Positions 1 to 48,835 of a stretch of 48,835 nucleotides of DNA are shown here, in pieces; position 1 is the stretch's first letter, and every line of letters begins with the position of its first letter. Source of the stretch: Gemmatimonas sp. (GTDB taxonomy: Bacteria > Gemmatimonadota > Gemmatimonadetes > Gemmatimonadales > Gemmatimonadaceae). The notes beneath the pieces were generated by a model. It searched no databases and was not told where the DNA came from. It saw only the letters and a list, made by a program, of their open reading frames with translations. Made by a program: the position numbers and the translations under genes. The stretch spans positions 1 through 48,835 of the forward strand of contig JANNVQ010000031.1 in assembly GCA_031414535.1 (NCBI GenBank), given 5' to 3'.

Positions 1-114
1 GGCAAGCCGACGAAGGTCGCGCTCACCGCGTGCATGCGCCGCCTACTCATCATCCTCAACGCCATGGTCCGCAAGCAGGAACGGTGGCAGGCCATCACGC
101 CCACCACCGCTTGA
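1..114 (+). CDS. IS110-family transposase/recombinase, C-terminal fragment (5'-truncated by window)
   Basis: Manual translation of frame 1 (not in ORF track): GKPTKVALTACMRRLLIILNAMVRKQERWQAITPTTA*, matching the typical IS110 C-terminal motif GKxxKVALxACMRKLLxILNAM; TGA at 112-114. Confidence 0.85.
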   Translation, partial: GKPTKVALTACMRRLLIILNAMVRKQERWQAITPTTA

Positions 115-131
115 CTTCCAACACAGCCTCT
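1..131 (+). mobile_element. IS110-family insertion sequence, right end
   Basis: Transposase stop is followed by a short end cttccaacacagcct and CT (130-131); TTGACT (-35-like) at 111-116; the flank after CT matches the host repeat arm. Confidence 0.75.
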
Positions 132-142
132 TCGTGGTGAAC
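130..142. repeat. Residual arm of REP-like family A repeat interrupted by the IS110
   Basis: CTTCGTGGTGAAC is identical to the terminal arm of the intact copy at 39864-39876. Confidence 0.7.
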
Positions 143-160
143 CGAAGGTCCTGAATCAGT

Positions 161-2350
161 TCAGCCCTTGAACGCGCGAAATTCCGCCGTGCTCGAAGGC
201 GGACGACCCGGCTGCTTAGGATCGCGGCGAAGTGCGCTAACCTCGAAGGTGAATGCGCCGCTCTCGCGGCTCCCCCCCCAACTGTCCCGCAGCAGCATAC
301 GGTGCGTCGCGCGTTCGCCGCGGCCCTCTTCCGGATGCCGCTGCACGTACGAGCCGTCAGCCTGCAGATCCCAAGCTTGGCGGTTATCCGACAGGCAGAC
401 CTCGAGCACCGACTGCAACCGCTTCTGGAACAGATGGTTGAGCACGGGAGTGACGACTTCCACGCGCCGATCCAAATTGCGCGGCATCCAGTCCGCCGAG
501 CCAAAGTAGTACTCGGGCTCCCCTGCGTTACCAAACATCCAGATGCGCGAGTGCTCGAGGAAACGCCCGATGATGCTCAGCACGCGGATGTTGTCGGAGA
601 GCCCTACCACGCCCGGCCTCAGACAGCAAATGCCACGAATGATGAGGTCAATCTCGACGCCGGCCTGCGAGGCCTCATAGAGCGCCTCGATGATGTGCGG
701 ATCAACGAGGGCATTCATTTTGGCGGTGATACGTCCGCCGTGGCCCGAGCGCGCGTTGGCCGTCTCGCGCTGGATCATCTCCATCACGCGGTCGCGCATA
801 TTGACAGGCGCGACGAGCAGGCGACGGTACTCCGTCTGACGCGAGTACCCGGTGAGCGAGTTGAAGAGCTCTGAGATATCGGCCGCGATAGACTCGTCGC
901 AGGTGATGAGACCGAGATCCGTGTACAGGCGAGCCGTGCGCGTGTTGTAATTGCCAGTGCCGATGTGCACGTAGCGACGGATGCCATCGGCTTCCTTGCG
1001 TACCACGAGCGCGGTCTTGGTGTGCGTCTTGAGGCCAGGCAGGCCATAGACCACGTGTACGCCGAATGATTCCAGCGTGCGCGCCCACGCGATGTTGTTT
1101 ACTTCGTCAAATCGCGCCTGCAGTTCCACCAACACGGCCACCTGCTTGCCGCGCTGCGCGGCCTCAGTGAGGGCCTGCACGATGGCACCATCACCGCTGG
1201 TGCGGTACAGTGTCATCTTGATGGCCAGCACGTGCTCATCACGCGCCGCGCTCTCGATGAAGGTCTCGACGGAGGCGCCAAACGAATCGAAGGGATGGTG
1301 CAGCAAGATCTCGTTTTCCCGCACCACATCGAAGATGGACCGCGTGGTGTCGCGCAGCTCGGGCGGCACCGCAGGAATCAGGGGCGCATCGCGATGCTCC
1401 GGGAAATCGAGCCCACCGAGTTGCAGAAAGTCCGAGATATCGAGGAAAGGGCCCGGCTCGTGCACTTCACGCTGCGAGAGGGGCGCCATTTCTGGGGCTT
1501 CGCTCGCACGGAGTTCCTCGAGCAGAAGCTCCTTGAGGTGCGCCGGCGTGCCTTCCTGCACCTCAAGGCGCACCACCTCACCGAAGCGACGCTGGAAGAG
1601 CTGCTCTTCAATGGTCGCGAGGAGGTCTTCCGGTTCCTCGGTATGGGAGATTTCGAGGTCCGAGTAGCGCGTAAGGCGGAAGGTCCAGTGGCCCAGGATG
1701 TCCATGCCGGGGAACAGCGCATCAATGCGATCGCCAATGACTTCTTCGAGGGGCACGAAGCTGTTGGTACGTCCGGTCGGTACCCAGCGTGGCAGGCTTT
1801 TGGGCACCTTCACGCGCGCAAAGCGCACATCGCTTTTATCGGGGTCGCGCAGCTCAACGGCCAGCGAGAGCGAAAGGTTGGAGATGTATGGGAAGGGGTG
1901 TCCCGGGTCCACGGCCAAGGGCGTGAGTACTGGGAACACTTGATCGCGGAAGAACACGTCGAGGTTGGCGCGCTCGTCCGGCTCCAATGCATCGGGCGAC
2001 AGGATGCGCACGCCGATCCCGCGCAGCGCGGGCAGCAAGGTGTCCGCGAGCAGGGCGCGCGAGCGCACGTGCAACTCGCGCACGCGCTGGTCAATCAGTG
2101 CCAACTGCTCACTCGGCGTCAGTCCATCGGCACCACCGTGAAGCACGCCGGCGGAGAGCTGCCGGCGGATACCGGCGACGCGCACCATGTAGAACTCATC
2201 CAAGTTGGAGCCGAAGATCGCGAGAAACTTCACGCGCTCTAGCAGGGGCGTCCGCTCGTCCTCGGCCTCATGCAACACTCGCGCGTTAAACTCGAGCCAC
2301 GAGAGCTCGCGGTTCAAGAACGAGGGATTCTTGGAATCAAGCGGATTCAT
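161..2350 (-). CDS. ppk1: Polyphosphate kinase 1
   Basis: NRELSWLEFNARVL, NLDEFYMVRVAG, LTPLAVDPGHPFP, KTHTK, GTGNYN, GRFLEHSR, SADWMPRNLDRRVE motifs. Confidence 0.98.
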   Translation of the reverse strand: MNPLDSKNPSFLNRELSWLEFNARVLHEAEDERTPLLERVKFLAIFGSNLDEFYMVRVAGIRRQLSAGVLHGGADGLTPSEQLALIDQRVRELHVRSRALLADTLLPALRGIGVRILSPDALEPDERANLDVFFRDQVFPVLTPLAVDPGHPFPYISNLSLSLAVELRDPDKSDVRFARVKVPKSLPRWVPTGRTNSFVPLEEVIGDRIDALFPGMDILGHWTFRLTRYSDLEISHTEEPEDLLATIEEQLFQRRFGEVVRLEVQEGTPAHLKELLLEELRASEAPEMAPLSQREVHEPGPFLDISDFLQLGGLDFPEHRDAPLIPAVPPELRDTTRSIFDVVRENEILLHHPFDSFGASVETFIESAARDEHVLAIKMTLYRTSGDGAIVQALTEAAQRGKQVAVLVELQARFDEVNNIAWARTLESFGVHVVYGLPGLKTHTKTALVVRKEADGIRRYVHIGTGNYNTRTARLYTDLGLITCDESIAADISELFNSLTGYSRQTEYRRLLVAPVNMRDRVMEMIQRETANARSGHGGRITAKMNALVDPHIIEALYEASQAGVEIDLIIRGICCLRPGVVGLSDNIRVLSIIGRFLEHSRIWMFGNAGEPEYYFGSADWMPRNLDRRVEVVTPVLNHLFQKRLQSVLEVCLSDNRQAWDLQADGSYVQRHPEEGRGERATHRMLLRDSWGGSRESGAFTFEVSALRRDPKQPGRPPSSTAEFRAFKG

Positions 2351-16585: not shown

Positions 16586-16705
16586 TCACCACGGAGGCAC
16601 GGAGGCCCGGAGAACTGCAAAGAGCAAAGCCTTTTTGTGGGGTCCGGCTCCGAATGTTCCGCGTGTGCTCTGTGCAGTCTCCGCGCCTCCGTGTCTCCGT
16701 GGTGA
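16586..16705. repeat. Family A REP/REPIN-like palindrome
   Basis: tcaccacggaggcacggaggcccggaga ... tctccgcgcctccgtgtctccgtggtga; arms have 8-nt periodicity. Confidence 0.85.
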
Positions 16706-17574: not shown

Positions 17575-17727
17575 TCACCACGGAGGCACGGAGGCTCGGA
17601 GACTGCCACCGAGGGAACTGCAACTGCATCTTGAGGGGGGCTCGCACCGATATCTCGGCGCGAGCCCCCCGAGGCCATCTTGCTCTTGTCGTCTCCGTGT
17701 CTCCGTGTCTCCGTGTCTCCGTGGTGA
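17575..17727. repeat. Family A REP/REPIN-like palindrome with inner hairpin
   Basis: tcaccacggaggcacggaggctcggaga ... (ctccgtgt)x3 ctccgtggtga; inner ggggggctcgc/gcgagcccccc hairpin; lies between convergent genes. Confidence 0.85.
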
Positions 17728-35656: not shown

Positions 35657-36118
35657 ATGGACTGGTTCGTCCGCGCCTTTCTCAAGTCCAGCCTCGTCTG
35701 GCTCTCGCTCTCCGTGCTACTCGCCCTGACTATGGCATTCGTGCCCACGCTCACGGCCTACCGCACTGCGCACCTTCACATGGCGCTGCTCGGCTTCGTT
35801 GCCCAGATGATTTACGGCGTCGCGCTGCACGTCATCCCGCGCTTCTTTGGTCAGCCACTAGTGATGCGACGCGCGGCGGAGATCCAGTTCTGGGCCGCGC
35901 AAAGCGGCCTCGTGGCCCTCGCGACTGGCTTCATCCTCAGAGTTCACGGCGTCCCTGGCGCGTCGGCACTCATCGCCACTGGCGGAAGTTTGAGCGCGAT
36001 CGGCGCCGGCTGCTTCGTGGTAAACATCTGGCGCACAATTGATGCCAGCCCGATGTCAGCCGTGCACGCGAAGGCGGCGAAGGGGCTGCCGACAATGCCG
36101 CAGGCGGATGCGCATTAG
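35657..36118 (+). CDS. Small four-TM membrane protein with HxH motif (heme-copper oxidase subunit I-like fragment family)
   Basis: AHLHMALLGF...YGVALHVIPRF motif; four hydrophobic helices. Confidence 0.65.
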   Translation: MDWFVRAFLKSSLVWLSLSVLLALTMAFVPTLTAYRTAHLHMALLGFVAQMIYGVALHVIPRFFGQPLVMRRAAEIQFWAAQSGLVALATGFILRVHGVPGASALIATGGSLSAIGAGCFVVNIWRTIDASPMSAVHAKAAKGLPTMPQADAH

Positions 36119-39752: not shown

Positions 39753-39875
39753 TTCACCACGGAGGCACGAAGGGGCCCCTGCATGCTCTCGGCCCCGCAG
39801 TCCCAAAAAAGAATGGCTTCTTTAGGGTTGCGGGGCCGAGCGTGTGCAGCGAGTCCTTCGTGCCTTCGTGGTGAA
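39753..39875. repeat. Family A REP/REPIN-like palindrome
   Basis: ttcaccacggaggcacgaagg / ccttcgtgccttcgtggtgaa 21-bp stem with one G.T pair, plus inner ctcggccccgca/tgcggggccgag stem. Confidence 0.85.
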
Positions 39876-39886
39876 CGGCCTTGCTG

Positions 39887-47478: not shown

Positions 47479-48648
47479 ATGACGTCTCTTCGCACAGTTC
47501 CTTTGATTGTGTGTTTGCTCGGACTCGCCGCGTGCGCCACCGGCGATCGCGTGCCGGGCGCCGCAACAAACACCGTGGACACCACCGGCGCGTATCCGGT
47601 CTTCCACGCTCGCACCCCCGCTGAACAGTGGCGCGCCGAGTTCGAGGTGGAGATCGGCGCGAGCGAAGATGGTGGAAGTGAGTTTGGTGGTGTACGTTCC
47701 ATCGCACTCGGCCCCGACGGAGTTGTCGCGGTGCTCGACCATCGGACGCCGCAGATCGTCGCGTTCTCGACGGATGGCGCGCGCATCGCCTCGTGGGGCC
47801 GCTCGGGCGCGGGACCGGGCGAGTATCGGTGGCCGTACTCCATCGCATACCTCGGCGACTCTCTCGTCCTCTTCGATCCCGGCCTGTCTCGCATCACGCT
47901 CTACAACCACGAGCGACGCTGGCTCCGGGAATGGCCGACGCCTCGGAACACGGGAGGCGCACCGGTGCGCCTCTACCAAAATCCTCCGACCACCGCCTGG
48001 GTCTTCGCAACGCGCGCGGTGCCGACGGGTCTCGAACGTGTCTTCGTGCGGTATCAGTCGAGCGGCACAACGGACACGATTCCCATCCCCTATTACGAGT
48101 TCCCGCCGAGCGAGTCCGCGAACTGCAACAGCCCTGACGGAAGCATCTCTTTCTACTCGGCTCCATTCTCCCCGTCGCTGCTCAGCACACCGCTTGAGAA
48201 CACGGAGCGCGTCGCGGTCATCACTACGTCGTACCGCCTCGCCTTCTTATCGCGCTCGGGGGATACGCTTCGCGTTATTGAGCGCGCTCTCACGCCGGCG
48301 GCAGTCACCGACTCTCTTTGGGCGGCGGAGACATCCGAGTGGACCGAGTTTCGCCGGAAAATCCCATCCGCACAGTGCTCCCGCGAGTCGTTTACGCGCC
48401 CAGCGAAAACGCCACTCGTGTACGCTTTGTTCTCGGACGAGAGCGGACATCTGTGGGTCGAGGCGCACGGCTCCGAAGGCGTTGTCTATGACGTATTCAC
48501 AGCGGACGGCACGTTCGTGGCCACGGTCAGCGGTCTGCCCGCGAGCAGCGAAGTCGTTCCCAGCGTGCTCAACGGGCGCATAGCTCTTGTCGTCGCGGAT
48601 GCGCTTGGTGAGCAGCGAGTGCGCGTGTATCGCATTTCGCAGCACTAA
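47479..48648 (+). CDS. Lipoprotein, probable 6-bladed beta-propeller (cassette 2)
   Basis: Lipobox LAAC; GRSGAGPGEY, DSLVLFD, DESGHLWV, YDVFTADGTFV blade motifs. Confidence 0.8.
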   Translation: MTSLRTVPLIVCLLGLAACATGDRVPGAATNTVDTTGAYPVFHARTPAEQWRAEFEVEIGASEDGGSEFGGVRSIALGPDGVVAVLDHRTPQIVAFSTDGARIASWGRSGAGPGEYRWPYSIAYLGDSLVLFDPGLSRITLYNHERRWLREWPTPRNTGGAPVRLYQNPPTTAWVFATRAVPTGLERVFVRYQSSGTTDTIPIPYYEFPPSESANCNSPDGSISFYSAPFSPSLLSTPLENTERVAVITTSYRLAFLSRSGDTLRVIERALTPAAVTDSLWAAETSEWTEFRRKIPSAQCSRESFTRPAKTPLVYALFSDESGHLWVEAHGSEGVVYDVFTADGTFVATVSGLPASSEVVPSVLNGRIALVVADALGEQRVRVYRISQH

Positions 48649-48835
48649 GCGCGCGCACAGGCTAACGACGCTTGCTGCCGACAGCCGCGGCGAAGGATGC
48701 AGTTGTGGGGCGGCCGCCAACGATCCCATCCGAAACCGCGGCCCCCCCACAACTGCATCCTTCGCCGCGGCTGTCGGCAGCAAGCGTCGTTAGCCTGTGC
48801 GCGCGCTTAGTGCTGCGAAATGCGATACACGCGCA
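48620..48835. repeat. Perfect 91-bp inverted repeat running off the window end
   Basis: 48745-48835 is the exact reverse complement of 48620-48710. Confidence 0.95.
48660..48795 (+). other. attC site 2 (left arm genuine; right arm probably a fold-back copy)
   Basis: R'' GGCTAAC is complementary to the cassette start GTTAGCC; the left arm is 48/53 identical to attC1. Confidence 0.8.

Follow-up and report, generated by a model that had tools for sequence, protein, structure and literature searches.

Gene-less hairpin repeats are familiar from REPIN-RAYT systems, in which the repeat arms also flank one enzyme gene, and ISPpu9, an IS110 element, reportedly sits in a palindromic repeat. IS621 of E. 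coli, also an IS110 element, inserts in REPs (PMC11208160, PMC11208158); the parts of that literature drawn on here describe screens in which IS621 had low mismatch tolerance and IS110 orthologues some of which have longer right guides (PMC11208160), and a preprint, likewise drawn on in part, states that IS621 excision needs a donor match only (10.64898/2026.08.31.748434). In Pseudomonas putida, ISPpu10 inserts in copies of one intergenic stem-loop repeat, tolerates distal left-guide mismatches and is strict over five positions of its right guide, according to the sections consulted of 10.64898/2026.03.19.712850. ISCro4/IS622 has a target frame of 14 nt, 7+2+5 (10.1101/2025.05.14.653916, excerpts).

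Here we analysed a window of 48,835 nucleotides that starts at the first base of its contig (G000:C31:1-48835, where G000 is the window's genome and other G numbers are the genomes of relatives). The window opens with the C-terminus of an IS110 recombinase, followed by a right end finishing in ACAGCCT, then CT, then TCGTGGTGAAC; positions 130-142 are identical to 39864-39876, and these two are the only exact matches in the window. The recombinase C-terminus, the right end, the CT and the identity of the flank had been described in a first-pass annotation, whose coordinates, including a TTGACT sitting 15 nt before the end of the CT, were correct. We conclude that the window begins in one of six copies of an IS110-group element, very probably a bridge-recombinase element guided by RNA into the arms of a host hairpin repeat. 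The features at this end of the window are as follows.

Positions 1 to 114, forward strand: C-terminus of the IS110 recombinase, an open frame of 37 codons and a TGA stop, the remainder cut off by the contig start.
Positions 111 to 116, forward strand: TTGACT, the predicted -35 hexamer, overlapping the recombinase stop codon.
Positions 115 to 129, forward strand: right end of the element, 15 bp, identical in all six right junctions.
Positions 123 to 129, forward strand: left donor arm ACAGCCT, predicted to be read by the donor guide ACAGCCACT of a bridge RNA in the left end, outside the window.
Positions 130 to 131, forward strand: CT core of recombination, a CT at 12 of 12 junctions.
Positions 132 to 140, forward strand: outer end of the repeat arm; its first five bases, TCGTG at 132-136, form the right target for guide CACGAAG.
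Positions 161 to 2350, reverse strand: polyphosphate kinase 1 gene (ppk1), its 3' end toward the insertion, which served for synteny.

A Pfam search with the 37-residue window fragment alone matched no family; the fragment is, however, identical to the C-terminus of a 311-residue open reading frame at G000:C35:109-1044, for which a profile search returned both PF01548, the N-terminal DEDD domain, and PF02371, the C-terminal domain with its conserved serine. The full frame also passes the NCBIfam model NF033542 for IS110 RNA-guided transposases, with 214.9 bits against a cut-off of 140, and its residues D7, E50, D92, D95 and S230 align with the active sites of IS621 and ISCro4 (IS621 numbering as in the part of PMC11208158 consulted). 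The element measures about 1.15 kb, comprising a 195-nt left end, the 936-nt gene and the 15-nt right end; a long left end, a short right end and the lack of long sub-terminal inverted repeats distinguish the IS110 group from the IS1111 group, and inspection of the junctions by eye gave no inverted ends of 7-17 bp.

Profile search found this to be the sole IS110 element in its genome, and its nearest named relatives, 78-86% identical, come from Gemmatimonas and Gemmatimonadaceae MAGs, which suggests a host from the same group. Right-end copies lie at the starts of contigs C31, C32, C53 and C55, at the end of C12 and inside C35; the six left-end copies lie on C8, C12, C24, C43, C46 and C57. The right end is the same in all six copies, five of the left ends vary at a single position and the reading frame is intact; the C57 left end (L004) has five substitutions in 68 nt, all to A or T and two of them within target guides, and is either a decayed copy or a read error. 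Element contigs in two public runs also end at position 131. One of these runs, X1, may be the window's own source, and its depth of 74 on the element against 11.3 on the flank fits several copies without amounting to a copy number. A second element variant, with 12 differences in 131 nt, was seen in runs X1 and X2, and its contig likewise ends at 131.

The six left and six right junctions in this genome all fall at the CT core within an arm of the hairpin repeat, as the first-pass annotation had expected of other copies. It had also expected the left flank to be the rest of an arm ending in cgtgc or cgtgt before the CT, and all six left flanks indeed end in GTGC-CT (five TTCGTGC, one TCTGTGC), while all six right flanks start with CT-YCGTGGT (five TCGTG, one CCGTG). 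From 9-10 nt past the CT the right junctions diverge, which places the flank outside the element. Intact arms have a single CT (GTGC-CT-TCGTG), and there is no target duplication beyond it; a right boundary with the core placed two bases earlier was rejected, since it would need an extra CT that intact arms lack. The preference for T-type over C-type arms, the two subfamilies of the repeat, is weak (5/6 insertions, P 0.036).

No complete copy lies on one contig of this genome, and left and right junctions were paired indirectly. The window was paired by synteny with the C43 left end: the gene preceding the C43 junction adjoins the 3' end of ppk1 in G032, one of five genomes checked (a more distant C43 match is in G453), and G032 has neither repeat nor IS at that locus. 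On this pairing the pre-insertion site is a remnant of about 30 bp with a 7-bp outer stem only, and no inverted repeat was found within the C43 left flank itself; the window copy most likely sits in such a shrunken repeat remnant, not in a full hairpin. The start of C12 was paired with C35 through a 71-nt overlap and synteny with G453, and C24 with C55 from flanking genes that we took to be lpdA and sucB. Neither a circle junction nor an empty site was found among the listed loose ends of contigs from four DNA runs. Separately, window positions 130-156 are identical over 27 bases, 14 of them beyond the arm, to G000:C8:22586-22612, where the hairpin is intact, hinting that a repeat may recently have been copied together with its flank.

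The left end contains, in order, AAGGTGCCA as left target guide, CACGAAG as right target guide, ACAGCCACT as left donor guide and GTATGGCGCAAG as right donor guide. Guide segments had been predicted there in advance. The right target guide, the reverse complement of CT-TCGTG, matches at 7/7 positions; the left target guide matches the predicted TTCGTGCCT at just 5/9, missing positions 1-3 and 9 at all six sites, and the donor guide matches at 8/9, donor position 7 being mismatched both by it and by one handshake base. When 15 related left ends are folded to a consensus, both target guides stay unpaired between conserved stems. In a two-loop structure edited from that fold, 99.3% of cells are paired and 4/29 pairs have two-sided changes, exceeding all 500 shuffles of a control that ignores kinship. 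A single left end alone folds no better than shuffles (z 0.18), its unconstrained fold pairing part of the guides, and Rfam gave just two chance-level matches on three loci with element ends.

The consensus for a -10 hexamer is TATAAT. Joining the element ends computationally, as in a circle, places TTGACT of the right end 17 nt from TATGTC of the left end, which matches the consensus at 3/6 positions; the -10 that had been forecast in the left end is thus present as a candidate, and the predicted promoter would form only in the excised circle. By analogy with IS621, the element would excise as a circle whose joined ends make a promoter for transcription of the bridge RNA, and recombinase and bridge RNA would then recombine the circle (ACAGCCT-CT-TGTAT) into NNNGTGC-CT-TCGTG.

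The likeness to IS621 extends from the DEDD and serine recombinase (E 1.3e-36), the long left and short right ends and the CT core to handshake pairing and a palindromic-repeat target. The donors are identical at 12/14 positions (ACAGCCT-CT-TGTAT here, ACAGTAT-CT-TGTAT in IS621, given as ACAGTATCTTGTAT in the supplement rows), the predicted junction promoter has the 17-nt spacer of the one in IS621 (TTGCAG-17-TATTAT), and the right donor guide is GTATTTGCAAG in IS621 as against GTATGGCGCAAG here (PMC11208160 and the part of its supplement consulted). The differences are the target itself, a left guide matched at 5/9 positions as opposed to 8-9/9 in IS621, a right guide whose natural match is complete over 7 nt, and a target tied to a GxxExxY gene and not to classical REPs. 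Mechanistically, the element is an IS110-group member that would work like IS621. The earlier proposal of an IS621-like element programmed against a different repeat family is supported. The top structural-database match was ISCro4/IS622 (PDB 9t56, E 6.9e-40); the excerpts of 10.1101/2025.05.14.653916 contain no aim at this repeat. At the level of sequence, the boundaries, the CT core, the catalytic residues, the two-loop RNA fold and guides matching both the element's own joined ends and the repeat arms are established.

None of the six insertion sites matches the three distal left-guide positions, so recognition apparently rests on target positions 4-14 (4+2+5), which appears to be the simplest reading of the weak left guide. 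Three adjacent distal mismatches are the natural state here, in another repeat and another host than those of ISPpu10. The corresponding 11-mer, GTGC-CT-TCGTG, occurs at 57 genomic sites, 48 of them with the arm prefix TTC, and is almost confined to octamer arms, which belong to about 70 hairpins and half-hairpins, so the element would live in intergenic repeats and could also enter a gene-bearing cassette. The 14-mer TTCGTGC-CT-TCGTG occurs 48 times in the genome, against 0.11 expected under a 4th-order Markov model. The genome contains no perfect 14-nt match to the guide, and at 28 sites that are not arms the guide has more matching positions than at the sites used.

It is possible, if somewhat unlikely, that pairing is necessary and insufficient, and that the target hairpin, its tandem octamers or an arm-bound protein provides a second signal compensating the weak left guide, comparable to the stem-loop of ISPpu10, an element that loses over half its activity without it (10.64898/2026.03.19.712850, sections consulted). 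As many as 310 genomic sites match the guide at at least 9/12 positions, 43 of them in arms, yet all six insertions are in arms, as a second signal would predict. The strict rule on target positions T4-T14, however, already places 48/57 sites in arms, and non-arm sites may fall in genes and be selected against; moreover, no full opposite arm accompanies two of the six left flanks (C43, C46), a proportion near the background of 21 solo arms to 52 paired hairpins. The data fit a strict core-proximal rule and help from the hairpin alike.

The repeat itself forms 125 terminal arm junctions in the genome, made up of 52 paired hairpins, mostly of about 100-120 bp, and 21 solo arms; it is intergenic in the examples read, which are not a genome-wide count. 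The window contains three intact hairpins of the target family, all from the inverted-repeat search.

Positions 16586 to 16705, no strand assigned: intact hairpin with C-type arms.
Positions 17575 to 17727, no strand assigned: intact hairpin with C-type arms and three octamers.
Positions 39753 to 39875, no strand assigned: intact, unoccupied hairpin with a T-type arm and the exact 14-nt target, an inverted repeat with 59-nt arms.

An arm-like match ending GGTAAAC lies at window positions 36013-36025. Elsewhere in the genome, the C46 left flank (L007) and C17:18493-18518 are solo arms, lacking an opposite arm, in which the octamer has multiplied to four or five tandem units; the C46 array has the IS at its end. 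Window positions 48640-48810, at the contig end, form a near-perfect hairpin of some 170 bp delimited by CTAAC and GTTAG, with similar sequence at many contig ends of this genome; we take it to resemble an attC site.

The first-pass annotation had called the target a host REP-like repeat; it is an abundant palindrome but, judged by gene content, not a classical REP. A search for RAYT genes (Y1 HUH, PF01797) found none in this genome, which is 98% complete, with the control matched in 6/14 genomes. The single GxxExxY gene of the genome (PF13366, TIGR04256) instead lies between two inverted family arms (C24:46984-47400), an arm-GxxExxY-arm arrangement that recurs in G453 and G067, and we interpret the hairpins as the gene-less form of this cassette. 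This resembles REPIN-RAYT, except that the flanked gene encodes a PD-(D/E)XK GxxExxY protein (TIGR04256) and that the search of the genome turned up no Y1 transposase; we infer that the GxxExxY nuclease moves the repeats. Across the phylum, 29 of 30 GxxExxY loci were taken, one from an unpublished genome being omitted, and the arm motif was found upstream of 14 (three of these matches not confirmed by eye), downstream of 11 and on both sides of 9, against 0/54 control windows. Arm matches are patchily distributed, in 22/55 genomes of the genus.

That the repeats are ordinary host REPs, the GxxExxY gene a captured passenger and the element another REP-targeting IS110 is unlikely. The two-sided arm motif at just 9/29 loci and the several GxxExxY genes in IS-bearing genomes that have other arms or none would suit such a history. 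It fits poorly with the failure to find a RAYT or Y1 gene, with arms lying within about 10 nt of the gene on both sides in G000, G453 and G067, and with the motif-free control windows.

To place the guides in a wider series, we collected 120 loci with a near-full-length recombinase, of which 95 were parsed automatically, two misparsed were replaced and five were parsed with simpler anchors; the six junctions of this genome brought the set to 104 records, and 16 were dropped for short flanks or lack of a guide, yielding 59 distinct left ends. Three named loci were omitted from the guide set as possible duplicates. Guides were located without reference to the target, with registers chosen as best-of-few for real and shuffled pairs alike; one guide pick (L241) is spurious according to alignment A1. 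Guide and flank matched at 8.93 of 12 non-core positions over the 59 left ends, as opposed to 4.21 when shuffled (maximum 5.07 in 1000), and at 9.92 as opposed to 7.06 (maximum 8.44) in the 18 arm-targeters alone; the rows are related, and the shuffles therefore overstate significance. In arm-targeters T1 hardly ever matches (rate 0.07), T2-3 match at a rate of about 0.55, and T4-7 and T10-14 reach 0.94 or more. Their right guides CACGAAG, CACAGAG, CACGGAG and CGCAGAG correspond to flanks TCGTG, CTGTG, CCGTG and CTGCG, respectively, and left-guide positions 4-7 track GTGC, GCGT, GTGT, GTGA, GCGC or GAAC in the flanks. The handshake base pairs with position 7 in 41/48 targets and 38/48 donors, above the shuffled maxima of 35 and 33; at position 6 it is not above shuffles (20/48 and 11/48).

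Decay of the left guide after the insertions, which would make the copies relics of a better-guided ancestor (such as one with GTCGTGCCA, found in L240) and leave them weakly active or inactive, is improbable. The relatives L164 and L240 do match 6/7 left-target positions, and this element's sub-clade has a further guide mismatch at donor position 7. Against decay, the right ends show no differences, five of the left ends vary at a single position and the frame is intact, and the AAG prefix also occurs in L160, a relative that is 86% identical but has another right guide, which suggests that the mismatch has been carried through separate transposition rounds.

Two other groups of relatives had different insertion sites. 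One consists of fifteen distinct IS621-like relatives (52-60% identity) whose insertion site is CT-AAC and whose right guide is CGTTAG, their left guides matching poorly (right flanks of L098-L103, L155-L159, L253-L255, L260, L263, L268 and L283). The CT-AAC site, as we take it, resembles the start of integron attC sites, the targeting of which is reportedly a property of the IS1111 group. A literature search on IS110, attC and bridge RNA returned nothing beyond Durrant 2024. A third group (L251, L252, L258, L261) inserts in nine-base arm variants, with the CT two bases further along the unit.

The association with arms recurs in related genomes. In the complete genome G453, 8/8 copies of two IS110 lineages, 78% and 50% identical to this element, are at arm junctions with both flanks on one contig. 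One of these copies lies in the upstream arm of the GxxExxY gene of G453 and parts its likely start codon from the remaining frame; in G000 the orthologous locus is unoccupied. Another G453 hairpin, beside a gene that is presumably msrA, holds one IS110 lineage in each arm, and its syntenic counterpart in G000 holds the C12/C35 copy. In G248, a related arm is occupied by an IS copy lying some 200 bp downstream of a GxxExxY gene. That the flank is element DNA or an assembly artefact is scarcely credible: the lack of a complete copy on one contig and the indirect pairings of junctions are set against six distinct flanks on each side, and complete copies in relatives, with both flanks on one contig, show the same structure.

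Across the genus, arm-targeting elements occur in 8/18 repeat-rich genomes and in 0/37 genomes with two or fewer arm matches, a count that leaves out fragments in G018 and G033 and includes many incomplete genomes. A quick recombinase tree, built from 46/63 rows after 17 long-branch or near-duplicate rows were dropped, unites 19 arm-targeters with three elements that have other specificities in one well-supported group and places the second lineage in another. The tree gives no support to separate origins for the two arm-targeting lineages, which are 51% identical; they form one side of a branch with support 86.9, and a single origin is possible. We tentatively propose, at less than even confidence, that a family-wide IS110 clade is a specialised parasite of a mobile arm-GxxExxY-arm cassette, with guides re-tuned to each host's arm octamers over an 11-nt window at T4-14, and that it can put the autonomous cassette out of action by severing the start codon from its nuclease gene. 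If this is true, the guides would mark functionally constrained arm bases, likely binding sites of the GxxExxY protein.

The suggestion that this specificity might be undescribed holds in part. We found no publication naming it, but the supplement of Durrant 2024 contains about twenty unlabelled natural arm-type targets (target_seq539-556, 1862-1864, 2323), for example TCTGTGC-CT-CCGTG, and three of these targets come with a left end whose guides are GTGCCC and CACGGAG, one matching guide pair; the portion covered names no host, repeat or cassette for them (PMC11208160). Four junction strings typical of the lineages found here had no matches in the examined part of supplement file 4 of the same work. 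No published description of GxxExxY-linked repeats, or of IS110 in the Gemmatimonad group, was found in a search that covered supplements in part, where a mention could be missed. The mechanism, repeat targeting and, in ISPpu10, distal-guide tolerance are already published, and arm-type specificity is already present in published raw data; the target class is what is newly identified.

The added value accordingly lies in the identity of the target family, in the guide series and in the cases of an IS breaking or doubly occupying a cassette, the mechanism not being new. The 18 distinct arm-targeting left ends form a natural bridge-RNA series in which right guide, proximal left guide and handshake base change with the target while the three distal left-guide positions are free, which is useful for off-target prediction and orthologue mining. 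They also put a name to the class of target, namely the arms of GxxExxY cassettes; our literature searches turned up no description of this abundant repeat family. For the biology of these genomes, they present one selfish element living on another and, in one genome (G453), breaking its gene.
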